Shown: positions 16,750-41,321 of the stretch, piece after piece
Position numbering within the stretch: the stretch's first letter is position 1
How the letters are laid out: each line of letters begins with the position of its first letter
Source: Bacteroidales bacterium OttesenSCG-928-B11
GTDB lineage: Bacteria; Bacteroidota; Bacteroidia; Bacteroidales; WCHB1-69
Assembly (NCBI GenBank): GCA_030267125.1
Contig: JAJDJJ010000001.1
Span: 6,249 to 70,248, forward strand
Length of the DNA: 64,000 nt
Direction: 5' to 3'
Notes under the pieces: generated by a model
The model's input: only the letters and a program-made list of their open reading frames with translations
Database searches by the model: none
What the model was told of the DNA's origin: nothing
Position numbers and translations under genes: made by a program

Positions 16750-16816
16750 CGAAGACACGAGGAAGCAAACCGATAAGAAGTCGGAGAGTAGATAGATAGC
16801 TTTAAAATCTTTAATT

Positions 16817-21004: not shown

Positions 21005-21451
21005 TTACCAAACCTGAAAAATGATTTCATGTTTATAATCCGTTGATTTATCAGTATTTAATTCTGCGGTAACGGATACGGTAATGATTTTTCCTAATTG
21101 TTCATATTTCATTTTCACCTCCACATTTTTGAGGCGGGTCTCGTAGCGTTCAATATTTTTCTTCAGGTCGTATGCAAAAGTGTTATGATTTTTTGCTGAT
21201 CCGGAGATCTTTTTTTCATATTTAACCTCTTTATTCTGTCTGTTTTTCTCCGGTAATTTCAGCGTCCCTTTCTGTTCATCAAAAATCTCAAACTGAAAGT
21301 TTTTGAAGATAAATCCGAAATTCTTATCGGGGATAAAACTGCCCATCTGTGTCTCAACAATGAGTTCTATAAATTGATTGATAGAGCTAATTCTATCTTC
21401 ATCACGTTGAATTTCACCTTTTTGTATAGAAAATGGTATTTTAATATTCAT
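21005..21451 (-). CDS. tssE: T6SS baseplate wedge protein TssE (GPW/gp25-like)
   Basis: Has the gp25 signature pattern: SINQFIELIVETQMGSFIPDKNFGF near the N-terminus, and IERYETRLKNVEVKMKYE...ITVSVTAEL. Confidence 0.75.
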   Translation of the reverse strand: MNIKIPFSIQKGEIQRDEDRISSINQFIELIVETQMGSFIPDKNFGFIFKNFQFEIFDEQKGTLKLPEKNRQNKEVKYEKKISGSAKNHNTFAYDLKKNIERYETRLKNVEVKMKYEQLGKIITVSVTAELNTDKSTDYKHEIIFQVW

Positions 21452-24340: not shown

Positions 24341-25570
24341 TTAATTAAATAAATAGTGTAAGCCTAATTCAAAACCAATATTCAGAAAACGTGTATTATC
24401 TGCTTCGATAAGATTACATCTATTGCGGATATAAAGAGGATCCGTGCCGGACACTTCTCCTTTTGATAGTTTAGTAAATGTATAAGAGCAATTTACCCCC
24501 AATTTAAGCACAATCGGCAGATATTTCTTCATCGTCTGATTATAAAATGGGATATAAACTCCACCGGAAGCAAAACCGGAGAAGAGAAATTTATTCAGGT
24601 CATTATCCGTTATTTCGCGATTAATATCATACTGCCCATTTTCGATCTCCCGGATGTCGCCTAAATTTTCCCCCAATATCTGAACATGATAGCTCTTCTG
24701 ATCATAAAACTTAGAAGCGAGCTTGAAAGAGGCGACAACCCCAATCTTCCCCCAACCGCTCACTTTCATTTTCCGTGGGCAACCGATCGCGATTCCGATA
24801 GGAATATCTAAATAGAGAAGTGATAGTTTCTCATTGGCAAAATGGAAGTTATACTTACGATCATATTCTGTGCCGTCAATAGTTACATCATTTTTATAGA
24901 TAAATTCTTCGTTTAGCATATTTTGCTTGAAGACGTACCGACTAATGCCCACGCCGGCACTAAGGGTGATGGGTGTGATGGGATTGATTTGCGGCGATTC
25001 ATACATAATCTGGTAGGATTGAGAGAGAGTGGCTTCACTATTCCAAAAGGGAATTTTCGAGATATGACCAAAAAGCATGGGAGAACCCATATTGATATTA
25101 AAGAAGATTGATCCGCCGTAATGCTCTCTTTCACTGAGAGGCGCGCGTGCGGCGGGGCGATTTTTTTCTGATAGCAACGAATCTATTTGGCTGATAAGTG
25201 TCTGATTCTTTTTGCGTAGCTCTTCAATCTCTTTATCTAATTGCTCTACCTGTCCGGTCAGAAAATCAATAACAATTTGCTCTTCGGAGGTGAACAACGA
25301 ATCTTTTGGCGCATCGTTTTTCGACATTCCCGCACCCTCTTTGAGGCGGTTTAGTTCGAGTTGCAACCGATCGCGACTGCTTTTTAATTTCGCAATCTCT
25401 TTGTTGAGGTCATCCACTAATTCGTATTCAACGCTAACGAAATCTGCAGGCTGTCCACTGTAATACTCGATTTTTATCTCTTTCCCTTTATATTTCCCAC
25501 GTACCTTGTTTTGCCCGTAAGTAGTTAAAACAAAAATAGATAGTAGAATAAGCAATACCCATTTTTTCAT
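24341..25570 (-). CDS. Secreted coiled-coil protein with C-terminal outer-membrane beta-barrel-like domain
   Basis: Has a signal peptide (LSIFVLTTYGQ) and heptad-rich residues about 55-135 (LKSSRDRLQLELNRLKE..., VEQLDKEIEELRKKNQTLISQIDSL). The C-terminal half shows an alternating beta pattern and ends ...GLHYLFN. Confidence 0.5.
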   Translation of the reverse strand: MKKWVLLILLSIFVLTTYGQNKVRGKYKGKEIKIEYYSGQPADFVSVEYELVDDLNKEIAKLKSSRDRLQLELNRLKEGAGMSKNDAPKDSLFTSEEQIVIDFLTGQVEQLDKEIEELRKKNQTLISQIDSLLSEKNRPAARAPLSEREHYGGSIFFNINMGSPMLFGHISKIPFWNSEATLSQSYQIMYESPQINPITPITLSAGVGISRYVFKQNMLNEEFIYKNDVTIDGTEYDRKYNFHFANEKLSLLYLDIPIGIAIGCPRKMKVSGWGKIGVVASFKLASKFYDQKSYHVQILGENLGDIREIENGQYDINREITDNDLNKFLFSGFASGGVYIPFYNQTMKKYLPIVLKLGVNCSYTFTKLSKGEVSGTDPLYIRNRCNLIEADNTRFLNIGFELGLHYLFN

Positions 25571-25583: not shown

Positions 25584-27986
25584 TTATTTATCTTTTTCGA
25601 TGTAGGTGAATGTGGTTTTCCCGATAGTAAAAGCGATGCCGTGAGCCAGATTCAGTTTCTGTCCGACTTTCAGTTCCCTATTTCCATTTACGACAATACC
25701 TTCAGCGGTAGCTTCCAAGTAGGGTCGTTCATTTTCGATGTAAAGGATGGCATGTTGGGGGGCAATATTATCTGCCGGATCCCAATTCATTTCAAGAATA
25801 CAATCCACTCCTTTTCCGATACTTACACGGTTAAAGCCTCCGGATACACTCATCCATTTATAGATTGCGATTTCGCGTTCTTTGATCGGTCCTTCCAGGC
25901 GCAAGAAATATTTTTCGGATGCGAAATGGACGATAGAGATAGCCATTCCCAGTCCCGCGCCATAGATCATAAAGCTGAACATGGCCATAATCTCTTGTGC
26001 GAAATTGGCGAAATATAAGACAATAAAACTGAGAAAAACGGAGATTAGCCCACCGATAATAGCATTTTTCAGGTTTATTTCCGTGCGGTAAGAGATCAGC
26101 CAGGCAATGCTACATCCGAAGAATAACCATGGAATCCAGTCAAGCCAAAAACAAGAGGTGTCTTTTCCAACCAAGATGAAGATAATTCCACCAATGAGAA
26201 ACGAAAGGAATCCGATCAGCAAGCCGGCCAATGAACGGAGCGCGATCATCGCGACTACTTTGAGATCTTTTTTCTTAAATTCGATGAGATAAGAGAAGAG
26301 GAAGGAGAGGAAAAATCCTAACAACGCTCCACTCAATAACAAAGATGATATTTTGGATTGGAAATGTGCTGCAATGGAAGAGCCTTCTAATAGCTCTTTT
26401 GAAAGATAAAATACAGATACCAAGCCACTTATCAAACCGGAGAACATCTGATCGGAATAGATTATTTTGAAGAACACCCAAGTTAACATGCCGCCGATTA
26501 AGCCATAGAACATCCATCGCAAATAGTAGGGGGCGTTTCTGATATCCGATTTCTGCTCTTTATTATAGTAGTGTTTTCCTGTATTGCAATTCTTGCTGCC
26601 ATATTCGGGACACCGGTTTTTATTCTCCTCCCAGCACTCCCAATGTACGGTATGTTTGCATTTTGTGACGATCTGATCGCCGGTATTAAACTCCTCTTTG
26701 CAATGATAGCAGCGTTGACTGATCATGGCATCTCCGCTGGCCGAACTTTTCCGGAAAAGGGTTACATGTTTCTTCAGGAAAATCTGGTATTGAATGTAGG
26801 GAATCAGGAATTGGAAAAGGAAATAGATACATAGCACGAAAAGGGTTCCGAAGAGCAGGCCTTTGAAGATGATCCCGCCATTAGAGCCATTTTTTGCAGA
26901 AACAACCTCGGGGGCAAGCGGGCTGCCTTTAGAGTAGCTGTGCGATCCTTGTGCTAACGTTCCATCATGAAACATACTTAACCGGAGAGTTAACTCTTGA
27001 CCATCATATACTTTCCCGTTCGGATTGCTCATGATGATGCGGTAATCGGCTGCGATTGAGTCTAATGTGCCTACCATCAGATTCTCGAAGGCATCTATCT
27101 GGAAATTTTGGTGAAATGTGCCCTTGCTTTCATGGGACAAGCCGAAATTTGAAATGGTCAGAAGCTCATCTTTTACATCCGTAACGTTATTTTCATCTCC
27201 GAAATAGATGAAATGAATGGGGATGGGTTCCAAATGTTTCTTTTTTATCCGTGATGGGAACTCATTCAGAATTTCATCGCGCAGTGTGAAATAATCTACC
27301 CCGCCGATGAAACTGAAATCATCCATCGTTTTTCCGTTCGTTAAGACGAACATGATCTTCTTATTATTGACATCCTGAAGAATCGGATTGTGAGGAATAT
27401 TGGGGTAATGTGTTGGTTTTTCACCATATAACTCTTCCAATTTGGCAAGGAGCGCTTTGTAAAGAAACTTCTCTCCGGATGATCTCTCCCAGCCTTCCCA
27501 CGTAAAATCGTCAATGGTAACCTGTTTGCTTTCCGTCACCCCGTTATCCATAAATGCAAGAAAGACTTTGCATCCGGGAAATTCTTTGATCAGCGCGCCC
27601 ACAGCTTCTTTCTGCTTATTCAACATGCCGGTGGAGATAGAGGCACTGCGATCGGCAAGAATGAGAATCGAGTAGTTGCTGGGAATCACTTTCTGTCCGC
27701 GAATATCAATAAGAGAGTCTATTTCAGGATTAAATTTCGGACGGGAGCCTGTTTCTGTTACTGTAAAATACTCTGCTCTAAGATTATTCAGATTTATTTT
27801 AGAACCATTATCCATGAATTTTATCTCGGCAGATATGTTTTTCACGTTAGGGGAAAGGCTGAAATTAACAAATTCTATGCTGTAGTTATCTTTCAGATTT
27901 CCTGTAGGGGGAATTTCAGGGGCTTCTTTTTTGCTACAAGCAGTTAAGAACAGGCATAAAAAGAGGAGATAATATATCTTTTTCAT
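25584..27986 (-). CDS. Lipoprotein-anchored vWA / RING-H2-like zinc finger / polytopic TM / FHA multidomain membrane protein (E3 candidate)
   Basis: Lipobox: FLTAC. vWA MIDAS motif: ILILADRSASIS (DxSxS, residues 112-116). TM1 is followed by KKHVTLFRK. Residues 426-467 read C-x2-C-x13-C-x-H-x2-H-x2-C-x7-C-x7-C (CYHCKEEFNTGDQIVTKCKHTVHWECWEENKNRCPEYGSKNC), at nt 26586-26711. About 6-8 further TM helices follow. The C-terminal FHA-like pattern is VSIGKGVDCIL...APQHAILYIE...GIVVNGNRE...L.HG..FTIGKTTFTY (nt 25596-25844). Confidence 0.75.
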   Translation of the reverse strand: MKKIYYLLFLCLFLTACSKKEAPEIPPTGNLKDNYSIEFVNFSLSPNVKNISAEIKFMDNGSKINLNNLRAEYFTVTETGSRPKFNPEIDSLIDIRGQKVIPSNYSILILADRSASISTGMLNKQKEAVGALIKEFPGCKVFLAFMDNGVTESKQVTIDDFTWEGWERSSGEKFLYKALLAKLEELYGEKPTHYPNIPHNPILQDVNNKKIMFVLTNGKTMDDFSFIGGVDYFTLRDEILNEFPSRIKKKHLEPIPIHFIYFGDENNVTDVKDELLTISNFGLSHESKGTFHQNFQIDAFENLMVGTLDSIAADYRIIMSNPNGKVYDGQELTLRLSMFHDGTLAQGSHSYSKGSPLAPEVVSAKNGSNGGIIFKGLLFGTLFVLCIYFLFQFLIPYIQYQIFLKKHVTLFRKSSASGDAMISQRCYHCKEEFNTGDQIVTKCKHTVHWECWEENKNRCPEYGSKNCNTGKHYYNKEQKSDIRNAPYYLRWMFYGLIGGMLTWVFFKIIYSDQMFSGLISGLVSVFYLSKELLEGSSIAAHFQSKISSLLLSGALLGFFLSFLFSYLIEFKKKDLKVVAMIALRSLAGLLIGFLSFLIGGIIFILVGKDTSCFWLDWIPWLFFGCSIAWLISYRTEINLKNAIIGGLISVFLSFIVLYFANFAQEIMAMFSFMIYGAGLGMAISIVHFASEKYFLRLEGPIKEREIAIYKWMSVSGGFNRVSIGKGVDCILEMNWDPADNIAPQHAILYIENERPYLEATAEGIVVNGNRELKVGQKLNLAHGIAFTIGKTTFTYIEKDK

Positions 27987-28095: not shown

Positions 28096-29829
28096 TTAGG
28101 CTCTTTTTCTTCGCATCCAAGCCTTGAGATCGGTTAATGATATTTTCTCATTCTCATCCATTGAGAAAATACCTTTGCTATTTTTGCGGGCAATTCGGAT
28201 CTCTTCATCAGAGCAGTAGATGATCAGAAAACCAAAGCAATGGGTGGTTTTCAAGTATCTTTCACGGATGGTTTCAAAAGAGGAGTTGGTGTCGAAGATC
28301 AGACAACCCACCGCTCCATTTCCGCTTTCGGTATAACAACTGTCAATTTTAACTACTTGTCTGTGAGGAATACTCTCGGAGAAAAAGTAGCCGGAAACGC
28401 CTTCCGAAGAGGAGTAGAGAATGTCATCCATTTCGTTGATCGCTTTTCCACTGAATGAGATTTTAAAGTTATCAGCCGGTTGACCTTCGGGAGTATAATA
28501 CGAGTGTTCTTCTGTTTTATCGGTCTTCGATGTGGAAATTGTTCCGCTGCCATCGCGGCTCCATTTGTAAAGTTCATCTAACGAGTGGAATAGTTTTATG
28601 TCATCCTTGTTGTTCATCTCGCCATTGAGTTTGGGTGTGAAAAAAACCATATCCCAATGGGGTGTGTTTGTGTCGATTACAATAGCAACCATGCGATTTT
28701 TATCTTCAGGATACGCCAACTGCTGTTGTACTTTCAGATCATAATTTGAAAGGAAAATGCCAAGTCCCGGATGGGAGTGCATCCAGCAATTGTGTACATA
28801 TTCGCGATGTGTTTTTTGTGAAAGATCGTTGATTGTATTGGCTAATTTCACTCCGATTTTTTTACCGAAATTGAGGTTGTACTCCCCATAGATCGCATCA
28901 TCACCCGGCTCTATAATATATTCTAAACTAATATTATAAGATGTTTTTTCAGGGTTAGCGTATTCCCAACAACCAATAAGATAGCATCCGGTTTCGTTTG
29001 TCCGTTCGGGAATTTCGAGGAAGTGCTTGAAAAAATCATAGATACCTTTGATTGCTGAACGGCTAATCAGAATAGTCTGAATGGCAGTGTCTTCAAAAAC
29101 CTGATTCATGTGGATGACATAGTAGTTGTCGATATCTTTGCGAACATGTTTCAGGCCTACGTCAAAGTTCTCTTTCTCTTCCATTACTACAGTCAACGAG
29201 TTGGTTTCGTTATTTTCCTCTTTTTTCACCTTTTTCTTCTTCCGGTTCAGGATTAAAATAATGATAACCAAGATGATGATAACAGCTATAGCGTAGGGCA
29301 TCCATCCTGAAAGGAGAGAATGTATTGTTGAGTTTTCCGAGTTTTCCGAGTTTTCCATGTTGGAAGAGAGAGGGGATTCGCTCTCTTCATTCTCAAAAAC
29401 GATAACGACACTATCCTTAATATTATATTTTTCATCTAAAAGATCGGAAGTGGCATTTTCATCGAAATAATAAAAATAGATCACATTATGGGCAGGTAGC
29501 TCCGATTTTTCCATGAAAGATTCTAATGTGGTGTAATTCCCTTCCATGATGTCGCGCTGATTCGCGTCGCTGTTTAGCAATCCGGATTTGCCATCGATAT
29601 AGCGCGCGCGGGTAAAAAAGCTTAACGGAAGATTGTGGTCCCCTCTTCTGAAACGAATCGATAGTGTTGTGTTATTTTTAATCGTTAATGTTTCATTTTC
29701 AAAATTATATGTCGCTTTAACCTCTTCTTGCGCATGAATCAACGAGGAGTTTGAAATAAAAATCAAGAATAGGAGAAACGTCCGCATCGTTCGGGATGCA
29801 AAGCTAAAGGGTTGGGGTCGGTTCTTCAT
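28096..29829 (-). CDS. Bitopic membrane protein with cytoplasmic JAMM/MPN+ (JAB) metalloisopeptidase domain
   Basis: The signal peptide/N-terminal domain is followed by a TM helix (WMPYAIAVIIILVIIILIL) and then NRKKKKVKKEE (positive-inside). The full JAMM motif is present: E279 (ETGCYLIG) and H351-S-H353-PGLGIFL-S361-NY-D364, i.e. HxHx7Sx2D, at nt 28738-28779. The start may instead be Met15 (29787). Confidence 0.8.
   Translation of the reverse strand: MKNRPQPFSFASRTMRTFLLFLIFISNSSLIHAQEEVKATYNFENETLTIKNNTTLSIRFRRGDHNLPLSFFTRARYIDGKSGLLNSDANQRDIMEGNYTTLESFMEKSELPAHNVIYFYYFDENATSDLLDEKYNIKDSVVIVFENEESESPLSSNMENSENSENSTIHSLLSGWMPYAIAVIIILVIIILILNRKKKKVKKEENNETNSLTVVMEEKENFDVGLKHVRKDIDNYYVIHMNQVFEDTAIQTILISRSAIKGIYDFFKHFLEIPERTNETGCYLIGCWEYANPEKTSYNISLEYIIEPGDDAIYGEYNLNFGKKIGVKLANTINDLSQKTHREYVHNCWMHSHPGLGIFLSNYDLKVQQQLAYPEDKNRMVAIVIDTNTPHWDMVFFTPKLNGEMNNKDDIKLFHSLDELYKWSRDGSGTISTSKTDKTEEHSYYTPEGQPADNFKISFSGKAINEMDDILYSSSEGVSGYFFSESIPHRQVVKIDSCYTESGNGAVGCLIFDTNSSFETIRERYLKTTHCFGFLIIYCSDEEIRIARKNSKGIFSMDENEKISLTDLKAWMRRKRA
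29330..29356 (-). repeat. Three perfect 9-bp tandem repeats (gagttttcc) encoding (ENS)3
   Basis: Read directly from the sequence. They lie in the predicted periplasmic part of the JAMM protein (MENSENSENS). Confidence 0.9.
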
Positions 29830-30550
29830 CTTTTTTCTTGGGTTTGATTTTCAATTTTGCACGAACGATATTATAGATCATGAAAAAGGCAGCCAGCGTA
29901 ATGGTAACTTTGAATACAATATCCATTACATTGATTCGCTTAGACTTCAGTGTGATGATCTGTTCGTAAGTGGTTTTTATCTCTTCATGCTTTTTGTTAA
30001 GGAGTTCATCGCCATCAAAAAGAGCTTTGTTTGCAAGGTATTCATTTGAGATATCGTTGTACGTTGTATTCGCTTTGGTTTGTGCCATTTCTAAAGAATC
30101 GTGATCTTTATTTGCCACGTAATTTGTCGCGGATTCATACAATTGTTTAAAATGGGCATCGTATTTGTCGAAATTAACTAACAATTTCTCTTTATTTTTC
30201 TGCACGCCTTCCTCTGCTTCCAATTCAGCGATCTTTTTTTTGATTTCGGTATTCAAGATTTCATAATCGGAATAGATGTCGAACAGCTGTTTGCGATTAT
30301 CCACGATCATTTTTTTATTCTCATTGAAGTAGTCTTCCATATAAAAATTACTGGTAGCCAGATCTTTTTCAATGAGAGCGATATCGTCGAACTCTTCTAA
30401 TTTCGCACTGATTTGTTGAAGTTCGCTATATAATTCCGTCATATATTTTTTTGCCATTTTAATGGAATCTATTTGCGAAAAAGCGGATGAGTTCCCGCAA
30501 ACTAAGAGGGTTAAAAGGGCAGAAAAAGCGATTAGTTTTTTTCTGATCAT
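29804..30550 (-). CDS. Periplasmic coiled-coil protein with C-terminal membrane anchor
   Basis: Has a signal peptide (ALLTLLVCGNSSAFSQ) and a long helical/heptad region. The C-terminal TM helix (VFKVTITLAAFFMIYNIV) is followed by RAKLKIKPKKKDEE. It overlaps the JAMM gene start by 26 nt. Confidence 0.55.
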   Translation of the reverse strand: MIRKKLIAFSALLTLLVCGNSSAFSQIDSIKMAKKYMTELYSELQQISAKLEEFDDIALIEKDLATSNFYMEDYFNENKKMIVDNRKQLFDIYSDYEILNTEIKKKIAELEAEEGVQKNKEKLLVNFDKYDAHFKQLYESATNYVANKDHDSLEMAQTKANTTYNDISNEYLANKALFDGDELLNKKHEEIKTTYEQIITLKSKRINVMDIVFKVTITLAAFFMIYNIVRAKLKIKPKKKDEEPTPTL

Positions 30551-30557: not shown

Positions 30558-32048
30558 TTATTTAACGGTGGATTGGAATAATTTTTTTGCTCCTTCGTAC
30601 ATTGCGATCGCGTCTTTCACTTTTCCTGTTTTGCAAGACGCCGGCAAACTTGAAAGTTTCTTGTCCATCAACTTTGTTATTTTTCGGAAATCGGTTTTTA
30701 CACTTTCAGATTTTGAGTTTTTATACCGCGATACTAATTTGTTGATTTGAGTAGAAGCTTCTAAAATATCTTCGGCTTTCACATCGCAATTTGTTTTTGA
30801 GCCGGAATTAGATCCGGAAGATGCTGATGATGAGGTTTTGGGGTTTAACTGGTTGATTTCAATAAGTAGATAGCGATACACTTTTTCGCAAGCTGCAATC
30901 ATGTCGCAACGATTTCCTTTAGAACTTTGCTCGCGAACAGCAATGTATTTCTCCTCATTAAAATTGGAAACCGTTTTCAAAATAGCCGTGAAAACCGCTT
31001 GATTGTTATTGCCCTTCGCATCCAATAATTCAGCTTTTTTGCTCAGTAATATCGCAATATCTTTCTGTATTTCCCGCAAAGTAGCCATATTTTCCTGATG
31101 GGAACAGGGTTTATCCACTTCGCAGGATAAGCTCTCCACTTGTTTGAATAATTCACGGTAAACTTTCACCGAATCGGCTAAGGTCGGACAGCCGTGGAAA
31201 GTGTATTTGTTCTCCAGACTCAGCACTCTATGATCTTCAATAATATCATCGCGCAGGATGTTGAATTTATCGCAAGACCCACTGACACTGGAGCTTATTT
31301 CATCTTTTAACCCCTGCAATTTCACACCTAATTTGGTAGTCTCTTTCCCCACAACTTCCATTACTTTTGCTTGATCGGTGCAGGCATTTCTTTTAATCAT
31401 GAAATAAAATTCCATATCTTTTATCGCATACTGCAAAAGCATTTTCTTTTTCTGTGAAAAGTTGACATACTTGTAAATGACAGGGATGGGGTTGTTTAAA
31501 TAGATGATAGGATTAGATGCAACATCTTCAATGTCAAACTCTAATGTGTAAGAAGAGCGGCCTTTCAGGTAAACCAACTGATCGGCCATTTTATCCTCTG
31601 AAGAGGAGATCAGGGGAGCTGCAAAATCGAAACTTGTTTTGCTATGTTTTAACTGTTTGGTAGTAACCCCTTTTTTGATTATTCCTGTTCCTTTTTTATC
31701 TTTTTTCAGATCTTTCCCAACCAAGGCTTTTTGCTCATACTTTGCTTTTATCTCTTTGGAAATTGCTTTTACGGACAACTCTTCGTTGGGAAACCAAATC
31801 ACATTATACGGCAATTCACTGTTGCGCACGGGTTGATAGTGGATGGTCATGGTGAGTTTTTCCGTTTTTTGATCAAATCCAAACTCAAAAGTAACGGGAA
31901 TAGTTGGCGTTTTCTCTGAAACGCTCTCTAATTCTATTTTCGTTGTAAACGATTTATTATCTTCTAAATTAATATAATACGTTTTTTGTGCAACGATTTG
32001 GGTTAAAAGTGAAAAGATAAAAAAGCAAAAGAATATTATTCTTCTCAT
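30558..32048 (-). CDS. Secreted Cys-containing helical protein of unknown function
   Basis: Has a signal peptide (FCFFIFSLLTQIVAQ). The 496-aa protein has an N-terminal beta-rich part and a C-terminal helical part with about 10 spaced Cys residues. It sits between the E2 and the coiled-coil gene with gaps of 8-12 nt. Confidence 0.5.
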   Translation of the reverse strand: MRRIIFFCFFIFSLLTQIVAQKTYYINLEDNKSFTTKIELESVSEKTPTIPVTFEFGFDQKTEKLTMTIHYQPVRNSELPYNVIWFPNEELSVKAISKEIKAKYEQKALVGKDLKKDKKGTGIIKKGVTTKQLKHSKTSFDFAAPLISSSEDKMADQLVYLKGRSSYTLEFDIEDVASNPIIYLNNPIPVIYKYVNFSQKKKMLLQYAIKDMEFYFMIKRNACTDQAKVMEVVGKETTKLGVKLQGLKDEISSSVSGSCDKFNILRDDIIEDHRVLSLENKYTFHGCPTLADSVKVYRELFKQVESLSCEVDKPCSHQENMATLREIQKDIAILLSKKAELLDAKGNNNQAVFTAILKTVSNFNEEKYIAVREQSSKGNRCDMIAACEKVYRYLLIEINQLNPKTSSSASSGSNSGSKTNCDVKAEDILEASTQINKLVSRYKNSKSESVKTDFRKITKLMDKKLSSLPASCKTGKVKDAIAMYEGAKKLFQSTVK

Positions 32049-32059: not shown

Positions 32060-32674
32060 TTAAAGATTACTATCGACAAATTCTTTAATCCAGCCATTGG
32101 GTTCAGCTTGTGTGAGCACCCATTCCGCCACTTTCGTGTCTTCGGGAAAGGGAGGGATGTTCTGTGCATGGTACTTATCATAGCGAAGGTAGGCTGTAAT
32201 GCGTTCAATATAGTGGGCTAAATCGACAAAAGTCCCGTATGCTTTTGTATTCAAGCATACTCGTCCTGCGAAGTCGCCAAAAAAGCGGATGTTCGGATGC
32301 CAAGGGTGTGGAATCTCTTTTCCGAAATTATCGGTTGTCCGAAACATAAATTCCAATTTGGAATCAACACTTGGATAGTTGTTTGGAATGTTAATGCGAA
32401 GGAAAAACTCGTTATGTTTCAGCGGTTTCTGAAGTCCATTTTCATCAGGGGCACTAACATTGCAGAAAGATTCGATATTGTAAATCACTTCGTAAACAAT
32501 GGGAAGACCCTCTGCATTTCTTTTGCGGATAATATAAGAGATCTCTGTGCTGTTTTTTAACTTTTCGTCAATGGCTTCCCACTCGCGAAATAATCGAGCA
32601 CTGCGCCCCGAAAACTTCTTTCCTCTGTATTCATCTATTTCTCGTGCCATATATCCTCCTTTCTTAGCCTGCAA
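32060..32674 (-). CDS. UBC-fold E2-like ubiquitin-conjugating enzyme
   Basis: Has the eukaryote-type landmarks in order: RLFREWEAIDEKL (N-terminal helix), FFLRINIPNNYPSVDSKLEF (YP...P.v.F block), HPN (residues 126-128) and GRVC(140)LN, the catalytic-Cys context (nt 32255-32299). The annotated start overlaps the Ubl gene's end by 11 nt. Met9 (32650) is an alternative start. Confidence 0.8.
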   Translation of the reverse strand: MQAKKGGYMAREIDEYRGKKFSGRSARLFREWEAIDEKLKNSTEISYIIRKRNAEGLPIVYEVIYNIESFCNVSAPDENGLQKPLKHNEFFLRINIPNNYPSVDSKLEFMFRTTDNFGKEIPHPWHPNIRFFGDFAGRVCLNTKAYGTFVDLAHYIERITAYLRYDKYHAQNIPPFPEDTKVAEWVLTQAEPNGWIKEFVDSNL

Positions 32675-32981
32675 CAGGATCCATGATTACGTCCAATGTC
32701 TCTCCTGTTTTGACGTTATAATCGCGTAGACACTGTTCCGTTTTTCCAATTTTGGGATGTAAAATGATGTCATTCCCGTTCTCATCTTTCTTGCCAAAGA
32801 AATATTCTACGATAACGCCGTCACTGTCCACATTAGGAAGATCAAAATGCGGATTGCCATCCTTATCTCTACTCATTTTCAAATTATCCATCAGTAGTCC
32901 CAGATTTTTATTCGGATCATCTAATTTGTACTTGACGGTTTTATTCTTATAGCGTATTCTAACATAAAACTCTTCTGCCAT
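32664..32981 (-). CDS. Small ubiquitin-like (beta-grasp candidate) protein with free C-terminal glycine
   Basis: The 105-aa protein ends ...TLDVIMDPVAG, immediately followed by TAA (Gly codon at 32667-32669). It is the first gene after a 235-bp intergenic gap and lies directly upstream of the E2. Its alternating beta-strand/helix pattern is compatible with a beta-grasp fold, but the fold has not been verified. Confidence 0.6.
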   Translation of the reverse strand: MAEEFYVRIRYKNKTVKYKLDDPNKNLGLLMDNLKMSRDKDGNPHFDLPNVDSDGVIVEYFFGKKDENGNDIILHPKIGKTEQCLRDYNVKTGETLDVIMDPVAG

Positions 32982-33215
32982 AGTTCTGATTTTTAATTGG
33001 TTACTATATAATTTATTCGATGGTATAATAATTACCGATTCTTATCTTGACTTTTATTCTATAAATCGCTTGTAAATGAGAAAATTAGATATTCATCATC
33101 ACGTTGCGAAAATACAATTTTTTTGGGAATCTCCCCATAGTTCAAGGAATTTTCTAAGAGATTTTATCCAAAAAACAATAGAATAGTGGGTGCTTGTTTC
33201 TCATGCTTATCTACT

Positions 33216-33989
33216 TTATCCTTTTTTGGGTGGAGCTTGTGGCGCTGGCGGCTTGGGTTTGGCGTTGACAATCTCTCTTTTTCCTTCCGGTTTGGGCAAT
33301 GGCTTTCGGACAGATTGCCGGTTTTGTGAAGAATTTTCAGGCTTAGAATAGGGCTTCTTCAGCTCCGCAACATTCATCATGGGTGAGCAGTGTGGCGGCT
33401 GAATAGCCAAATCTTCAACCTGCTCTTTCACAGGTATCTCGGGTTGTTTTTTTACCGCTATTTCCGGCGTGATTTCGGAGGTTGTTGCCAAGCTCTCTTC
33501 GGGGAGAGGAGCCACTTGGGAAACCACTGGCGGATCGGGGCTTATCTTTGGCACCGGCGGATTAGTATTTACTTTTGGCGCCGATGGATTTGTGTTTACT
33601 TTTGGTGTCGGCGGATTAGTGTTTATCTTTGGTGCCGGCGGATTAATGTTCACTTTTGGCGCCGGCGGTTGAGCGGATTTTGTCACCGGCGGCCGCGTGG
33701 GTGGCTGAGGCGATCGGGGCGGCATATTGCTCGTCGGGGGAGTCGGGGCGGAGGGTTTCGGAGATTGCGGCTTGGCAGGTGCAATCGGCTTCGTCTCTGT
33801 TGTAAGAGTTATTTCCGGCTCCGGTGAAATGGAGCTGTCAGAATCAGAGATGACAATTTCGGCCTCCGACTCCTTTTTAGGCGTGATTTTTTCTTTTATC
33901 CTTTTGCCCTCATCAACGACATATCCCACTTTGCTGCCCACATGTTTTGCCGTCCAGAATGCTCTAATAATGTCCTTAATATTTGCCAT
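33216..33989 (-). CDS. Proline-rich repeat protein (no signal peptide) downstream of the effector
   Basis: A 257-aa protein whose central part is five 9-aa repeats (xPK[VI]N[TI]NPP) within a longer P/A/K/T-rich tract. Its start is 13 nt after the effector stop. Confidence 0.55.
   Translation of the reverse strand: MANIKDIIRAFWTAKHVGSKVGYVVDEGKRIKEKITPKKESEAEIVISDSDSSISPEPEITLTTETKPIAPAKPQSPKPSAPTPPTSNMPPRSPQPPTRPPVTKSAQPPAPKVNINPPAPKINTNPPTPKVNTNPSAPKVNTNPPVPKISPDPPVVSQVAPLPEESLATTSEITPEIAVKKQPEIPVKEQVEDLAIQPPHCSPMMNVAELKKPYSKPENSSQNRQSVRKPLPKPEGKREIVNAKPKPPAPQAPPKKG
33546..33680 (-). repeat. Five 27-bp tandem repeats inside the proline-rich gene
   Basis: Units start at 33546, 33573, 33600, 33627 and 33654 (consensus ttttggygccggcggattartrtttay on the plus strand). 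Confidence 0.9.
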
Positions 33990-34001
33990 ATCTTATCCTT
34001 T

Positions 34002-36419
34002 TTAAATCAAATTATCTTTAAAATAGGCTTCATTATCAAAATGAACCCAAAACTCTTTTTCGCCATCTCTATCCGGATCAAAATGGCGAATACTTATTTC
34101 TATCCACTTCCGGTTATTGAGTGTTTTGATTGCGTACTGCACAATCTCATCTTCTGTAAAATGCTCATTTTTTGAAGATTTACAGCCGGAAAGCGGGAGT
34201 AGTTTCCTCTCTATTTCATCCCAATCCGAGGGCGAGGAGATCTCTTTTCCCCATGTCTTCAAGTGCAGAGCAATAGCTCCTCCCTGATATTTCGGGGAGA
34301 AGTGTTTTCCCTCATTTTCATAATCCGGACAGCGAAAGCCGATAATTTCATTGATTTTGAATTTACTATCCAACTTTTGAGCCATATAAAATCGCAACGC
34401 GCTCACCGTCCACAACAAAGCGGGATGTATGCCGTGGCTTTTTCCCCAAGAGTTGCACTTATTGCAGCGGCAGGTATAGGCTTCCAACGGTTCTCTGTAT
34501 TTTTTCGAGAAAGTCTTCATGGCGGCCAATGTTTCAAGGTCAACAACGCCTGTAGGCAGTGCCATCTTCATGTAATCCCTTTGGAATTGCCTTACACACT
34601 GTTCGGTGCGATCGGTGAAATATTCGGAAGGCGCGGTACCGCCAAATCCGGACAAGCGAAGATTAATCTGTCGTACAACCTCTCCCAGATCTCCGTTTTT
34701 ATAAAGTGTCATTCGCTGCATCTGCTCTACAAAATAGACCGGATGAAAGTGATACGGAAGATAATTTCCCTTCAGTTCCGGAACCTGATCCCAAAATCCA
34801 TAATCCAAAAATTTCTTTTGCAGCGAATCAAGGTGAGGCTCTTTGGCATCCAAGATGGTCTTTCTCATCTCCGGATCTTCATATTTGGCGTAAAATTCAA
34901 TAATAGTATCCAATTCGGAGATGAAATAGTTCGCGGTCGCTTCTCCGGCCCATTCGGTATAATGCGTGGCAATCATACCCATAAATTGTCGGGCAATAGT
35001 GCTATCTTTCATCATCAACTTCATCTTCTCATCAGCACTAAAAGGGTCTCCACCAACATATTGACTATATAGTGAACCCTCTTCATCGCGCAATTGGGCA
35101 ATATATTTTTTGAGAAACTCTTCATGCCCGGAATAGATAAATTGATCGGGGAACCAATCTATTGTATTACGATCCACGATATGAAACCCCCAACGATGCC
35201 AGTCCCAAGAAGATACGGTTTGGAAGAGATCATCATTCTCTTTAATGCGCAACCAACGATCATGATATTTGATGAAATACCAGAACGTGTCTTCCTGCTC
35301 CGCTTTTCTTTGAAAGGGAATCATATACCCTGCTGCAAAATTGAATTTTTTGTCAATATGATTTTCCACAGAGCTAAACATCTGCTCCAGAACTCTTTTC
35401 GGCAGCTCGATCGTATTGTCTTTCGGGTCTTTTTTCCGGTGCATCAACAAATGGGAATCAATCCAGAAAGAGGAGGGATGATCCTTGTAATCAATCCAAA
35501 GCAAAAGGCGTTCCCGATTGGAGCCATCTTTGGGGAGCTCTTCCTGAAGTTGCAATCGGTTATTATTCCAAAGCATTCCATCGAACTTGTTATTCACTCG
35601 TTTGAAAGCAGTTTCCGGAACAGCATAACTATTGGTTTGGGCATCAAAGATGATATCCTTTTTGAAGATGACCCGTTTCTTTTTAACAATTTTTATCTTT
35701 GAAAAGCCATTTTTCTGTTCTAAAACCTGCACCGACCAGCTCCCTTTGATTTTGCGTGGAGGATACTGTTGCAAAGCGGCGGGTTTTAGAAGCTGGATAT
35801 GGCTTTTTAAAAGAGTGTCGTATTTGATGTTGGCGGATAGTAGATTGTGAATGGTATTGATATCGAAAGAGAATATTTCAAAATGGCACACTTTGTAGTT
35901 TGCTATTTTATTTACGCCACAGAAACCGGTATAGCCCAATTCGGTTCCGGCGGGGATTTTAATATTGCAATTGCCGATACCGTTTAAAGGGAAACGGGCT
36001 TCATCCCATCTATCCGCATGATCCGGGGATTGGAAAAATGAGGGAATTGTTCTCTTCTGTCTAACGATTTCCGAAATTGGAAGCAGGTGCATATAAAGCG
36101 AATAGAAGATAAACTCTTTCTGGTCTAATGGGTTGTTTTTATCAGAATAGGAGAAATGATGTTTTAGTAAGATGAAATTTCGCGAGTAGTATGTCGGGCG
36201 CGGATCATTGGTGGTTTTAGGAGCGGAAAGATATTCATTGTCAAAGCGATAGGCTATTATCTCTCCATCGGAAATAGAGCGAACCATCTCATCTCCTTCG
36301 AGATGAGCGCCGCCATGCCAGGTTCCGGATCTACCGAGAGGATAAGTTCCCCCGATAGGATGCGCTCGAAAATAGTCGTCAGTGGAATGAATAGAAGATA
36401 TGGGATAGTAAAAATGCAT
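34002..36419 (-). CDS. Large putative T6SS cargo effector with LytM/M23-like N-terminal domain and peptidoglycan-binding-like C-terminal region
   Basis: It lies immediately downstream of vgrG and the DUF4280 gene. The M23-like pattern is WHGGAHLEGDEMVRSISDGEIIAY ... YSLYMHL ... GTELGYTG ... KVCHFEIFS, with the metal ligands partly substituted. A PG_binding-like segment is present (CVRQFQRDYMKMALPTGVVDLETLAAM). A Cys-rich stretch follows (CRCNKCNSWG). There is no signal peptide. Confidence 0.55.
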   Translation of the reverse strand: MHFYYPISSIHSTDDYFRAHPIGGTYPLGRSGTWHGGAHLEGDEMVRSISDGEIIAYRFDNEYLSAPKTTNDPRPTYYSRNFILLKHHFSYSDKNNPLDQKEFIFYSLYMHLLPISEIVRQKRTIPSFFQSPDHADRWDEARFPLNGIGNCNIKIPAGTELGYTGFCGVNKIANYKVCHFEIFSFDINTIHNLLSANIKYDTLLKSHIQLLKPAALQQYPPRKIKGSWSVQVLEQKNGFSKIKIVKKKRVIFKKDIIFDAQTNSYAVPETAFKRVNNKFDGMLWNNNRLQLQEELPKDGSNRERLLLWIDYKDHPSSFWIDSHLLMHRKKDPKDNTIELPKRVLEQMFSSVENHIDKKFNFAAGYMIPFQRKAEQEDTFWYFIKYHDRWLRIKENDDLFQTVSSWDWHRWGFHIVDRNTIDWFPDQFIYSGHEEFLKKYIAQLRDEEGSLYSQYVGGDPFSADEKMKLMMKDSTIARQFMGMIATHYTEWAGEATANYFISELDTIIEFYAKYEDPEMRKTILDAKEPHLDSLQKKFLDYGFWDQVPELKGNYLPYHFHPVYFVEQMQRMTLYKNGDLGEVVRQINLRLSGFGGTAPSEYFTDRTEQCVRQFQRDYMKMALPTGVVDLETLAAMKTFSKKYREPLEAYTCRCNKCNSWGKSHGIHPALLWTVSALRFYMAQKLDSKFKINEIIGFRCPDYENEGKHFSPKYQGGAIALHLKTWGKEISSPSDWDEIERKLLPLSGCKSSKNEHFTEDEIVQYAIKTLNNRKWIEISIRHFDPDRDGEKEFWVHFDNEAYFKDNLI

Positions 36420-36500
36420 TATAACAGACTATTAAATTATATAGATAATTTCTTTATAACTCCCTGTTGAACAATAGACAGGGATTCAGATTCCTTTTGA

Positions 36501-36971
36501 TCAGAATCCAAATTCAATTTCAAAAGCACCTCCTCCAAAACTTTTGGCATTAAATTGATGGCCTCGGGAGTTGACAGTACCGGCACCTTCGGCGCAAGTT
36601 TTCCCGGTAGTAATAAAATCAATCATTCCACCCCAGAGGCAGGTAAGTTTGCAATTATCCAGCAGTGCCGGCATATTTTTCAGCAGTACGGTAGGAGCGC
36701 CGGGAGCCCACGGAGCAACGGTATTTGGGATGCACGGCATCGGGGTCAACACGCCGAACGCCGCCGCTGTGGCCGCCGCAACTTGCGGATTAGCCATGGA
36801 TTTGCACATCCCGAAAGGCAAAATGTTCACCATGGGTTTCATATCCATAATGTTGGCCATAGGCATACTCCCCGCCACCAAAACCATCTTGTCCGGTAAA
36901 ACCATAAAGGTGGATGGCGCCATGCCGAAACTGCATTTTATAGTTGCACTATTGCAGACGAAATTTGCCAT
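36501..36971 (-). CDS. DUF4280 (PAAR-like) spike-tip protein
   Basis: The N-terminus (VCNSATIKCSFGMAPSTFMVLP...MANIMD..P.VNI.PFGMC.S..NP) is the characteristic DUF4280 pattern. Its start is 4 nt after the vgrG stop. Confidence 0.7.
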   Translation of the reverse strand: MANFVCNSATIKCSFGMAPSTFMVLPDKMVLVAGSMPMANIMDMKPMVNILPFGMCKSMANPQVAAATAAAFGVLTPMPCIPNTVAPWAPGAPTVLLKNMPALLDNCKLTCLWGGMIDFITTGKTCAEGAGTVNSRGHQFNAKSFGGGAFEIEFGF

Positions 36972-36974
36972 GAA

Positions 36975-38948
36975 TTAACTTAATTTGATCATTTTTCCAG
37001 CTATATCTAACATCGCGCCGCCATCAATTTTCATAGTGGCATTTGCTTTCTGTTCAAAAGTGGCACCGGCTACAATTTGAACTTTTGAGTTGGCATCCTG
37101 CACAATATCGGTCGCTTCGACGGTGAATTTCTTGGCCGCCGCGATTTCCATATTGCTGCCGACAGAGATCGACGAATCTTTATTCACCGAATGTGAATGT
37201 TTCTGGCCGACAGATACATCCAAATTCTTGCCCGCCGTCTCCGTGATATTCTCTTTCACATCAATATCCAAATTCTTACCCGCCGTCTCTTTCACATTTT
37301 CGCCTGTCTCGCGCGTGAAATCTTTTTTCGCTTTCATGCTGATATTCTCTTTCGCTTCGAGAATAATATCCTTCTCGGCAAGCAACTCTATATTTCCGGT
37401 CGATTGCAAGCGAATCAATTTGTCATCGGTAGAGAAAGTGAGAATGTAGTTCTCCTTATCATTGTCATAGATTCTGATAAATCCGCCATCATCCGCATCA
37501 TTGATCTCAATCGTGTGACCGCTTCGCGTCCGGATACCTTTGATGTTGTTATCATCATTATACCAATTACTTCCAGGATTTTGCTTCCCGTGATAAAGCG
37601 TTCCGATGATGTAAGGTTTTTCACCATTTCCATTTTCAAAACCCACCATCACCTCTTCATCAATTTCGGGGATGAAGTAGTGTCCTTTATTATCTCCCCC
37701 GTAGGGGTGTGTCATGCGGATCCAGGGAGAGATCATATCCTCAGCCCAGATCTCTTGCCAAGAAAACTGAACACGAATGCGTCCTAATTTTCTTGGATCT
37801 TTATTATCTTTAACGATAGCGCGTTGCGCATCCATAACCGGATAGAGATCCGAGTTAGTGTAGGGAGGATAATCGCACGTGCCGGATAGAGCAACGATAT
37901 TGTTCTCGTAATGTCCGAGCAAAGAGACATGGTGCTCGATCCGGGTGACTAACATCTCTTCATGAGAGGTGTCTTCGTCTCCGCTATCGGTTTCATAACT
38001 GTCATTCATCGTGATTTTACTACCCAAGGCAATGTCTGCGCGGGTAGTGCTTATTTTGCAAACCATCATTTGCATTTTCGCACCCAATCCTTCGACGGAT
38101 ACGGAATTTTTGAGCTGCTCAACGTCATTGTCTTCAGCGGTACTACTGTGAAGATAGCGGAGCGTTTTTTTCTTGTAAGCAGATTTAGAATGTTTAAAAG
38201 CTATTTCATTCATTTTGTCTGCTTTCTCTTTGTTGTGATCTGCCGCGGATTCAAAGGGAACTCTGTAGTCTATATAGTTATGCTCCCCATGCATGAAATG
38301 GGGATGCCGCATTTGAAGTTCGTATTCAAATCCGGTTACATCATGATCTTGTTCAAGTTCTAACGTAGTGGGATTTACCGCTTTTCCGAAGATCATCTTG
38401 CCATCCGAAAAGTAGAAATATTCGCCATAGCGTTGTGCTAAGCGGGAAAGGAAGTCGTATGTCGTTTCATTATATTGGACAACGTATGGAATCTTGGTGG
38501 TCTCTCGCGGAGATATTTCAACTTTAAGATCAGAGTATGCCGAAATAGCATCGGTTACAATATCTTTCAATGTTTTTTTCTCGTATGAATAGCAATGGGG
38601 GCTATCTATAAGAAGATAATCCGGGCTATAGGCGGTGATTTTATAGACTATTCCTTCGAAAGAGACATTGAAAATAATCCCGCTGAAAGTAAGTTCTTCT
38701 TTGCAGATATTTTCATCCTGATCACGGCGCATAGTCACTATCTTGCAGTCAACTGTAGCTTCTAACATCTTATCCGACAGTGAAAAGGTGACATCATCTT
38801 TGCTTTTTATCAAACTCTTTTTTCGCATTGAAAAACGGAGTTCATTGGGTTTTAGAAATTCCTGAATTAACTGAAGCTCTAAGACTTCGTAGTCTTCATA
38901 TAGTTCTCCGTTAATTTTAACTTCTACTAATTCTGTTAAAACCGCCAT
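36975..38948 (-). CDS. vgrG: T6SS spike protein VgrG
   Basis: Has a gp27-like N-terminal region. The gp5 OB-fold block is LGRIRVQFSWQ...WIRMTHPYGGDNKGHYFIPEIDEEVMVGFENGNGEKPYIIGTLYHG. A repetitive beta-helix tail follows. Confidence 0.9.
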   Translation of the reverse strand: MAVLTELVEVKINGELYEDYEVLELQLIQEFLKPNELRFSMRKKSLIKSKDDVTFSLSDKMLEATVDCKIVTMRRDQDENICKEELTFSGIIFNVSFEGIVYKITAYSPDYLLIDSPHCYSYEKKTLKDIVTDAISAYSDLKVEISPRETTKIPYVVQYNETTYDFLSRLAQRYGEYFYFSDGKMIFGKAVNPTTLELEQDHDVTGFEYELQMRHPHFMHGEHNYIDYRVPFESAADHNKEKADKMNEIAFKHSKSAYKKKTLRYLHSSTAEDNDVEQLKNSVSVEGLGAKMQMMVCKISTTRADIALGSKITMNDSYETDSGDEDTSHEEMLVTRIEHHVSLLGHYENNIVALSGTCDYPPYTNSDLYPVMDAQRAIVKDNKDPRKLGRIRVQFSWQEIWAEDMISPWIRMTHPYGGDNKGHYFIPEIDEEVMVGFENGNGEKPYIIGTLYHGKQNPGSNWYNDDNNIKGIRTRSGHTIEINDADDGGFIRIYDNDKENYILTFSTDDKLIRLQSTGNIELLAEKDIILEAKENISMKAKKDFTRETGENVKETAGKNLDIDVKENITETAGKNLDVSVGQKHSHSVNKDSSISVGSNMEIAAAKKFTVEATDIVQDANSKVQIVAGATFEQKANATMKIDGGAMLDIAGKMIKLS

Positions 38949-38984
38949 GGTATTTTTTTTAATAATATAAATAGATCCTTTTTA

Positions 38985-39383
38985 TCAGAAGAGATGAAAT
39001 TCGCAGTTATCTCCAAATTTAATAACTCCCGCTGAAATAGTGAGTTTCATAATCATCTGGGAATCGGTTTCTTTATTGAAATTTTCAGAAAGCCCGACAC
39101 AATAGGCATCTCGAAATCCGAAACACCGGGTTGAGTCTACATGATTATTGTTTACGATGAAAGTGATGACTCCATCTTTAGAGGCAAACTTGTCTCTCAT
39201 CCATTCGTGAAAAATCAGGTCTGTGTCATCGGGAGCAACGATAGTGATATTGATTAATCCTCCCTTCGGACTTTCGGAAGGTCTTCCGTTTGAATCAATC
39301 TCTTGCGTAAACTCGTATTCACATTCTATCACATCATACTCTACATTGCTGCCTTCGATTTCAAATGTTGCCTTGAGTGCCAT
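38985..39383 (-). CDS. hcp: Hcp/TssD tube protein paralogue 2
   Basis: The 132-aa protein has the same layout as the upstream Hcp (V.ECEYEF.Q..D..GRP...P.GG.I.I......D....EWM......DG.I.F). It is adjacent to vgrG. Confidence 0.7.
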   Translation of the reverse strand: MALKATFEIEGSNVEYDVIECEYEFTQEIDSNGRPSESPKGGLINITIVAPDDTDLIFHEWMRDKFASKDGVITFIVNNNHVDSTRCFGFRDAYCVGLSENFNKETDSQMIMKLTISAGVIKFGDNCEFHLF

Positions 39384-39491
39384 AATTCTTACTATTTATT
39401 ACATTTACTTTATTTAAGAAAGAAATGGAATGAGGAACGATCCGAAGAACTCCTCATTCCATAAAGTGCTCATCCAATAGGATTTGTCAGA

Positions 39492-39884
39492 TTACTTCCA
39501 TGCGTTTTCAAATTTAACAGGACCACAAGCGATCTCTTGGCAAGAGATTTCGATCTCTTCCGTATGACCTTCATTGTCTTCCCAACTTTCGGTGAAGTTA
39601 ACGCAATATCCTTTTTTGAAAGCGATGCTTTTCATTTTCTCACCTTTGATGGTGTCGTTGAAAATAATTTCTCCATCTTTGTGTAAGTAAGGAGAGAGCA
39701 TCCATTTCAAAAGATCCGGATTGCCATCGTTGTACGCTTTACAACGAATTGTGATTTTTCCACCGCGTGGAATACCGGACATTTGTCCTTCCTGGTCGGT
39801 AGCTTGTTCAAAGGAATAGTTGAATCCTAATACTTCGCGTTCTTTGAAGCCGTCAACTTTTAATGTTACTGGTGTTGTTGCCAT
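39492..39884 (-). CDS. hcp: Hcp/TssD tube protein
   Basis: A 130-aa Bacteroidota-type TssD with the pattern VLGFNYSFEQATDQEGQMSGIPRGGKITIRCKA...LLKWM...DGEIIF. It lies directly downstream of tssC. Confidence 0.8.
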   Translation of the reverse strand: MATTPVTLKVDGFKEREVLGFNYSFEQATDQEGQMSGIPRGGKITIRCKAYNDGNPDLLKWMLSPYLHKDGEIIFNDTIKGEKMKSIAFKKGYCVNFTESWEDNEGHTEEIEISCQEIACGPVKFENAWK

Positions 39885-39935
39885 AATTTTGTTTGTTTAA
39901 GTTTGTAATTTAATGAATACTACATGTGTCTATTT

Positions 39936-41303: not shown

Positions 41304-41321
41304 GATTATATCTCTTAAAGG

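Follow-up and report, generated by a model that had tools for sequence, protein, structure and literature searches.

The window that we analyzed is a 64,000-nt stretch of DNA from Bacteroidales bacterium OttesenSCG-928-B11 (assembly GCA_030267125.1, contig JAJDJJ010000001.1, positions 6,249–70,248 of the forward strand). It holds a type VI secretion system (T6SS) cluster at 18694–44329 on the minus strand, with housekeeping genes on its flanks. Inside this cluster we found genes for a ubiquitin-like protein (Ubl), an E2 conjugating enzyme, an E1, a RING-type E3 candidate and a JAB peptidase. A first-pass annotation of the window had drawn attention to the Ubl and E2 genes, and we find both open reading frames (ORFs) on the minus strand at the coordinates that it gave. 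The genes on which the argument depends, and the two intergenic segments that adjoin the Ubl gene, are these, from 5' to 3' on the minus strand:

32982–33215, minus strand: AT-rich gap of 234 nt 5' of the Ubl gene, at the boundary between variable effector cargo and conserved core
32664–32981, minus strand: Ubl, a 105-aa, Gly-terminated beta-grasp protein of the ubiquitin family (ORF, AlphaFold2 model, Foldseek, family profile)
32651–32663, minus strand: Ubl–E2 spacer of 13 nt, GAAAGGAGGATAT, which holds AGGAGG
32060–32650, minus strand: E2, a 196-aa conjugating enzyme of the UBC fold with WHPN at 117–120 and a predicted catalytic Cys132 (alignment, AlphaFold2, Foldseek, profile)
28096–29829, minus strand: JAB/MPN+ (Rpn11-like) metallopeptidase of 577 aa, membrane-anchored (JAMM motif, profile, transmembrane segments)
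25584–27986, minus strand: RING-H2 E3 candidate, an 800-aa membrane protein (sub-threshold Pfam matches, ligand invariance, transmembrane segments)
23111–24325, minus strand: E1, a 404-aa adenylating enzyme of the ThiF family (ThiF E=1e-54, PDB matches, invariant residues)

Relatives of the E2 were collected in a one-genome-per-species scan, which gave 190 sites, and we kept the best 80 loci, each from a different species, for the counts below. Ubl C termini were counted in 79 species loci and RING ligands in 75 sequences, while the invariant residues come from alignments of 65 sequences for the E1 and 37 for the E2. Positions in the E2 follow the 196-aa form that begins at the ATG start. All 80 kept loci are from Bacteroidales; two of the contigs are labeled otherwise and are probably mis-binned. 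The carriers include Bacteroides, Parabacteroides distasonis, Alistipes, Prevotella, Xylanibacter ruminicola, Mediterranea and Millionella, and there are cultured strains of Parabacteroides, Bacteroides, Mediterranea, Millionella and Xylanibacter among them. When we searched 5.8 billion proteins we found 230 relatives of the E2, and every named one was from Bacteroidales.

The Ubl ORF ends in ...DPVAG followed by a TAA stop, so the annotation was right that it ends exactly at Gly, and the same ending is found in most of the family. The C terminus is exactly Gly in 74 of the 79 loci (49 with Pro-Gly and 25 with Ala-Gly). The other five Ubls have tails of 2–3 aa, and all five are in loci that contain the JAB gene. 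All 13 close relatives have DP[VI]AG as their terminal residues. A full HMMER scan of 1.8 billion representatives gave 100 Ubl relatives at E<=1e-3, and the full-length proteins among these mostly had [AP]G ends, with a few short tails.

Searching the PDB with single sequences was uninformative, and we needed family profiles: the Ubl sequence alone had no match and the E2 sequence alone had chance ribosomal matches only. PHROGs and NCBIfam gave nothing for either protein. The AlphaFold2 model of the Ubl, with a predicted local distance difference test (pLDDT) score of 83.5, is a beta-grasp with beta-beta-alpha...beta topology. In Foldseek it matches SUMO, ubiquitin and BfUbb of B. fragilis at probability 1.0, which bears out the fold that had been proposed for the 105-aa protein. 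It also matches viral ubiquitins in a viral structure library. We considered the phage tail-assembly Ubl (lambda TAPI-like) as the nearest fold and rejected it, since in the viral library it came at rank 47 with a probability of 0.41, far under the ubiquitins. The family profile matches monomeric ubiquitin with E=8.5e-5 to 3e-3, over the C-terminal 34 residues only; this match runs through the segment TLxDYN[VI]xxxxTLxL, with the motif L-x-DYN[VI]-x3-[DE]-x-L. Sub-threshold Pfam matches in the family are to ubiquitin (10 of 33 members) and to YukD (6 of 33). The 105-aa protein is supported as a mature, ready-to-use ubiquitin-like modifier, whose Gly would be exposed without processing.

For the E2, the residues R19, L20, E23, W24, P93, F103, W117, H118, P119, N120 and C132 are invariant in the alignment, as is a C-terminal block, P167-x-P169-x-D171..V174-A175. 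The first-pass annotation had listed, in order, an N-terminal RLxxE helix, a "YP...P.v.F" block, HPN and the catalytic Cys 12 residues later. Most of this stands: the helix motif is RLFREW in the window protein (RLxxEW), and WHPN is followed by the Cys, which was called C140 in a count from a TTG start and is C132 in our numbering. The YP block, however, reads YPSVDSKLEFMF in the window E2, and its second Pro is found only in the family consensus. From Asn120 to Cys132 the spacing is 12 residues, and the HPN-to-Cys loop is longer than in canonical E2s; in UbcH5-type E2s there are 8 residues from the Asn to the catalytic Cys.

The E2 model, which was built from the alignment, has a pLDDT of 92 and a predicted template modeling (pTM) score of 0.87. 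Among PDB structures, Foldseek ranks only eukaryotic E2 or UEV proteins in its top 50, with probabilities of about 1.0 and template modeling scores of 0.5–0.66 relative to the target, in agreement with the proposed UBC fold. The family profile matches UBE2K (E=0.002) in an alignment that spans the YP, WHPN, Cys and PxxPxD..VA motifs. At E<1 its PDB matches are almost exclusively eukaryotic E2s, with no bacterial E2 among them. The claim that this E2 closely mirrors eukaryotic UBC enzymes therefore holds for the fold, the motifs and the match to UBE2K, but it has to be softened for the sequence as a whole: identity to solved E2s is only 14–20%, the loop is longer, the Pfam UQ_con score is under threshold and there is a 9-aa insertion ahead of WHPN. 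This insertion is absent from the subclade that reaches PF00179 (UQ_con). The profile comparisons support placing the E2 nearer to eukaryotic E2s than to the Cap2 type of E2 of cyclic-oligonucleotide-based antiphage signaling systems (CBASS). In one related locus (L024, 9355–10579) there are two tandem E2 paralogues 3' of a single Ubl gene.

The annotation had also reported that the Ubl ORF overlaps the start of the E2 by 11 nt. This overlap is an artifact of a mechanically chosen TTG start at 32674. We rejected that start for the ATG at 32650, which leaves the 13-nt spacer instead. AGGAGG precedes this ATG, 36 E2 homologues start within a few residues of it, and public gene calls on four contigs give an E2 of 196 aa. 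In most related loci the spacer between the two genes is -4 to 52 nt. There is one locus with a 570-nt insert between the Ubl and E2 genes (L030, 8226–8800), and this insert carries a small ORF between opposed arrays of 7-nt repeats (GATTTTA / TAAATCG).

The best PDB matches of the E1 are UBA1, UBA7, UBA6 and SAE2, just above MoeB. Invariant in its alignment are the crossover-loop Cys190 and a metal site, C171xxC174...C264xxH267. We tried the C-terminal 150 aa as a ubiquitin-fold domain and dropped that assignment, as the profile found nothing in the PDB.

The first-pass annotation of the Ubl–E2 pair left out both the RING E3 and the JAB peptidase. From its N terminus, the RING protein runs through a lipoprotein signal, a vWA-like domain in the periplasm, a transmembrane segment, a RING-H2-like finger, 4–5 more transmembrane segments and an FHA-like domain at the C terminus; vWA-like, RING-H2-like and FHA-like domains in one multi-pass protein are an unusual architecture for an E3. 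The ligands of the RING are C426-x2-C429-x13-C443-x-H445-x2-H448-x2-C451-x7-C459-x7-C467, and they are invariant or nearly so (71–75 of the 75 sequences). The last ligand pair is spaced x7, not x2. There is a weak match to the Pfam family Prok-RING_1, which is described as a bacterial RING that spans the membrane and is associated with genes for Ub, E1, E2 and JAB.

The JAB protein begins with a signal or transmembrane segment, which is followed by a periplasmic segment, a transmembrane segment at about 169–199 and a cytoplasmic JAMM domain. Its JAMM motif, NETGC...HSHPGLGIFLSNYD (E...HxHx7Sx2D), is complete and is invariant in the loci that have the gene order of the window (architecture A, below). 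A profile of the domain matches Rpn11 (E=1.4e-10), a Caldiarchaeum Rpn11-like protein (8e-8) and also CSN5. The peptidase supplies the cascade with a candidate deconjugating enzyme.

The 5' part of the T6SS cluster runs through ClpV, TssB, TssC, two Hcp proteins, VgrG, a DUF4280/PAAR-like protein, an 805-aa effector candidate and a Pro-rich protein, up to the gap. After the gap come the Ubl, the E2, three envelope proteins, the RING protein, a coiled-coil/beta-rich secreted protein, the E1, a 259-aa protein (p259), a TssK-like protein, TssE and TssF. We looked at how much of this is kept in the 80 loci. The pairing of Ubl and E2 that had been noted in the window is conserved, with the Ubl gene directly upstream of the E2 gene in 79 loci. 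The RING protein is present in 75 of them and the E1 in 71, and Ubl, E2, E1 and RING occur together in 68. T6SS structural genes are beside the E2 in 74 of the 80, and in the remaining six the sequence ends too early for the flanks to be seen.

There are two architectures. In architecture A, the window type, the order is VgrG, PAAR, effectors, Ubl, E2, envelope proteins, JAB, RING, E1, p259, TssK, TssE, TssF. In architecture B it is TssC, Hcp, PAAR, E1, p259, TssK, TssE, TssF, Ubl, E2, two ORFs, RING. The annotation had put the Ubl–E2 pair at the head of a sub-operon, which is true of the window architecture but not of the other one, where the pair follows tssF. In P. distasonis An863 (L067, 4126–15167) there is a stand-alone module of E1, p259, TssK, TssE, TssF, Ubl, E2, two ORFs (396 and 295 aa) and RING. 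This baseplate-plus-Ub module lies between susCD and ilvD, with no sheath, tube or ClpV genes within 10 kb.

We think it likely that these genes form a complete five-part Ubl conjugation cascade, which is integral to this variant of the T6SS and may govern how the system assembles at the membrane. The gene order suggests that the cascade works for the T6SS itself, because the genes of the two systems are interleaved in an order that was rearranged twice and yet conserved. In addition, the genes in the effector slot are peptidoglycan hydrolase-like, so the Ub genes appear to be core and not cargo.

We infer the chemistry of each step. The E1 would adenylate Gly105 of the Ubl and take the Ubl onto Cys190 as a thioester, from which the Ubl would move to Cys132 of the E2. 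The inner-membrane protein would recruit E2~Ubl through its cytoplasmic RING-H2 domain and direct the transfer of the Ubl to a lysine of a membrane-proximal target, and its vWA and FHA domains may act as inputs. The membrane-anchored Rpn11-like JAB peptidase would remove the Ubl from the target. In the few species with a Ubl tail of 2–3 aa, it would presumably also trim this tail. Whether the outcome is a switch that turns baseplate assembly, or docking on the envelope complex, on and off is a further step that we propose tentatively, with rather more doubt than belief.

Several points weigh against this picture. The E2 scores under the gathering threshold of UQ_con (17.7 vs 27 bits, E=0.0028), and all of the Pfam matches of the RING protein are sub-threshold as well (RING families, Prok-RING_1, VWA_2 and the FHA-like Yop-YscD_cpl). 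The terminal dipeptide of the Ubl is Ala-Gly or Pro-Gly, not Gly-Gly. The C-terminal 150 aa of the E1, a domain that might present the E2, have no PDB match by profile. There is an FHA domain but no kinase in the cluster, though FHA domains normally read phospho-threonine. We found no JAB gene within the 10-kb flanks of the architecture-B loci, so reversibility may not be general. Finally, a conserved neighborhood points to co-inheritance and is not proof that a T6SS part is the substrate.

The same neighborhood evidence would also suit a tag for cargo loading or recycling, in which the Ubl is put on effectors, Hcp or VgrG, or on spent sheath or membrane parts for recycling that depends on ClpV; the cascade would then not act as an assembly switch. 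ClpV is encoded in the cluster, and in the window architecture the Ubl–E2 pair directly follows the variable effector region. However, architecture B puts the pair after tssF, far from the effector slot, and nothing connects the Ubl to ClpV. Since the E3 candidate and the peptidase are both embedded in the membrane, they would more probably act at the envelope complex, and we consider such a tag unlikely. Peptidoglycan-hydrolase-like cargo likewise argues against the idea that the Ub genes encode anti-eukaryotic effectors, with the Ubl and E2 injected into the cells of a host or of protists to hijack their ubiquitin system. The E2 and Ubl do look eukaryote-like, and the carriers live in the gut and the rumen, where eukaryotic cells abound, but the genes in the effector slot point to bacterial targets. 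Injected proteins of this kind would also not be expected to come with a dedicated E1 and with RING and JAB partners that have several transmembrane helices, and the pair is an invariant core rather than variable cargo. We find this explanation very improbable.

A passenger anti-phage defense island, similar to Bil or other predicted defense operons and merely sitting inside T6SS clusters, has to be taken into account because an antiviral role is the general prediction for bacterial Ubl/E1/E2/RING/deubiquitinase (DUB) operons that lack characterization (PMC10557695). The target of Bil conjugation is a phage tail protein, the tail fiber (PMC10557695). Phage tails are homologous to the T6SS, and the fiber is a relative of T6SS parts. 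Such islands are variable, though, while here the Ubl/E1/E2/RING set is a fixed core whose genes are interleaved with baseplate genes in two orders across many genera, and there is a compact baseplate-plus-Ub module flanked by housekeeping genes. The PADLOC defense models (Bil, CBASS type II) had no match for the Ubl, E2, JAB or RING proteins, and the E1 matched only the adenylation core of the CBASS E1–E2 models. We judge a passenger island to be quite improbable. The least credible of the explanations that we weighed is a sulfur carrier, with the Ubl and E1 working like ThiS/MoaD with ThiF/MoeB in the synthesis of a cofactor or thionucleoside. The E1 is of the ThiF family, with a MoeB score nearly equal to those of the eukaryotic E1s, and a C-terminal Gly is common to sulfur carriers. 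But the Ubl profile matches ubiquitin and not ThiS or MoaD, and an E2 with an invariant Cys, a RING and a JAB belong to the set. Inside the T6SS cluster there is no rhodanese domain or sulfur-pathway gene; cysD/cysN-like genes are outside it, at 15469–17521 on the opposite strand. The chance that this explanation is right seems negligible to us.

The proposed cascade has several known counterparts. Caldiarchaeum subterraneum and Asgard archaea have a complete Ub/E1/E2/small-RING/Rpn11 operon (PMC5654768). It resembles the window set in having the same five roles (in archaea as separate small genes), an E2 with an HPN loop and catalytic Cys, an Rpn11-type peptidase (the JAB profile match at E=8e-8) and a single-chain ThiF-type E1. 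In the archaea, the ubiquitin precursor extends 9 aa beyond its Gly-Gly, and Rpn11 has to remove this tail (PMC5654768), while the window Ubl ends in Ala-Gly. RING and JAB belong to large membrane proteins in the window, of which the RING protein also carries vWA and FHA domains, and the whole set lies inside a bacterial T6SS cluster; all of this is unlike the archaeal operon. The vWA-MoxR conflict systems also have a complete bacterial set of Ubl, E1, E2, RING and JAB, but their Ubl is fused to the E2 and the role described for them is in conflict or defense (PMC7159879). Bil (BilABCD) brings Ubl, E2, JAB and E1 together in a bacterium and conjugates in a Gly-dependent manner, but it is without a RING E3 and many of its Ubls are processed by the DUB (PMC10557695). 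The Bil proteins are also soluble, and they are found in defense contexts, not in T6SS clusters.

In T6SSi, assembly is controlled post-translationally by the PpkA/PppA/Fha1 threonine-phosphorylation pathway. The likeness to the cascade proposed here would be a reversible covalent modification at the membrane, with an FHA domain as part of the machinery. The difference is that conjugation of a Ubl would replace phosphorylation, and there are no kinase or phosphatase genes in the window cluster.

T6SSiii, with at least part of the TssNQOPR membrane complex, has been described as the only type in Bacteroidota (PMC10781749). The window cluster resembles it in its TssC (PF17541) and TssD (PF17642), both from Pfam families of the Bacteroidota type, and in its ClpV, VgrG, TssE, TssF and TssK-like protein. 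It differs in having five other envelope proteins (two of them with the RING and JAB domains) and a free Ubl, E1 and E2. No cluster protein matches TssN-R in Pfam or NCBIfam, although these libraries may not model all five and divergence, which is known to hide TssO and TssQ (PMC10781749), may do so here. In canonical T6SSiii, TssN has a ubiquitin-like domain that serves as the docking site of the baseplate (PMC10781749). Since TssN-R were undetected and a free Ubl is present, conjugation could supply this module reversibly. By this analogy the cluster might be a distinct kind of T6SS, in which the transmembrane RING protein conjugates the Ubl to a subunit of the membrane complex or baseplate, the transmembrane JAB peptidase takes it off again, and the Ubl provides in trans the beta-grasp docking module that TssN has as a fixed domain. 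We regard this as a doubtful extension.

Complete Ubl/E1/E2/RING/JAB sets are rare in bacteria and have been read as conflict or defense systems (PMC10557695, PMC7159879). Here, a complete Ubl/E1/E2/RING/DUB set belongs to the fixed core of a contractile secretion machine, and with no TssN-R detected the cluster may be a form of Bacteroidota T6SS outside the TssNQOPR scheme. We found no description of a link between a Ubl cascade and a T6SS in the searchable literature; Burroughs et al. 2011, which defined the prokaryotic RING families, may nevertheless include the operon, though not its tie to the T6SS. A functional link would offer a tractable bacterial model for RING-dependent conjugation of the ubiquitin type at a membrane and a new principle for the regulation of T6SS assembly in gut and rumen Bacteroidales. 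It would also bear on the emergence in prokaryotes of features that look eukaryotic, among them the ubiquitin-like sequence motif, the RING-H2 domain, the HPN E2 and the peptidase of the Rpn11 type. Control of assembly, if true, would be the first case of ubiquitin-type conjugation acting on the assembly of a bacterial secretion nanomachine, and a non-defense role for a complete E1/E2/RING/DUB system.

The first-pass annotation had proposed an internal promoter in the AT-rich gap upstream of the Ubl gene. The gap is there, although it is 234 nt and not 235, and its GC content is 28.2%, compared with 40% in the cluster. No other spacer of the cluster is as long, and the others are short. Our search of the coding strand of the gap gave no perfect Bacteroides -7 box (TAnnTTTG), only two boxes with one mismatch and neither with a -33 TTTG, and we found neither a terminator in the gap nor an excess of sigma-70-type sites. 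In a relative whose E2 is 73% identical (L085), the preceding gene ends 28 nt 5' of the Ubl gene and the cargo slot is different, with an M23 peptidase, an Amidase_3 protein and a Por_Secre_tail protein. Because of this short spacer and different cargo, we read the gap as the border between variable cargo and conserved core. An internal promoter is possible but not supported. There is a perfect -7 box, TAATTTTG, at 44389–44396 on the minus strand, 60 nt upstream of the clpV start, and it is a candidate for the main cluster promoter. The Peptidase_M23 and Amidase_3 genes of L085 suggest antibacterial cargo in the effector slot.

The other features of the cluster are listed here in the same orientation:

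33216–44329, minus strand: upstream T6SS genes, ClpV to the Pro-rich repeat protein (Pfam)
34002–36419, minus strand: 805-aa effector candidate with PG_binding_1 (Pfam)
33216–33989, minus strand: 257-aa Pro-rich protein built of tandem repeats of 27 nt (NPPxPKVNT units), which separates the effector candidate from the gap
30558–32048, minus strand: 496-aa secreted Cys-rich protein directly after the E2 (signal-like N terminus)
29804–30550, minus strand: helical protein of 248 aa with a lipoprotein-type signal and, at its C terminus, a transmembrane segment (found in 18 loci)
24341–25570, minus strand: 409-aa secreted protein, a coiled coil and then a beta-rich C-terminal half ending in ...HYLFN (conserved in architecture A)
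22335–23114, minus strand: p259, a conserved 259-aa protein (67 of the 80 loci)
21461–22330, minus strand: TssK-like N-terminal domain (NCBIfam TssK, 2.7e-9)
21005–21451, minus strand: TssE (NCBIfam TssE, 5e-6; Pfam GPW_gp25)
19259–20989, minus strand: TssF (Pfam T6SS_TssF)
18694–19149, minus strand: 151-aa lipoprotein, 3' of TssF

In the upstream part, Pfam identifies TssC (PF17541, E=1e-108), two TssD (PF17642, Hcp), VgrG domains and ClpV, while TssB was assigned from its position only. TssG was not identified among the cluster proteins. The p259 protein is always between the E1 and the TssK-like gene, and it had no PDB or Pfam match, a 20-sequence profile included; it is possibly a very divergent TssG. 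The 496-aa Cys-rich protein is weakly conserved in architecture A and had no family matches in Pfam or NCBIfam. The 409-aa protein is a candidate outer-membrane barrel. The N terminus of the 805-aa effector candidate looks like an M23 peptidase by eye, but Pfam gave no M23 match. The Pro-rich protein next to it may be an immunity protein or an adaptor. Outside the cluster, at 13580–15183 on the minus strand, an AbiEii toxin and a DUF6088/AbiEi antitoxin (a type IV toxin-antitoxin pair) adjoin the sulfate-assimilation genes.

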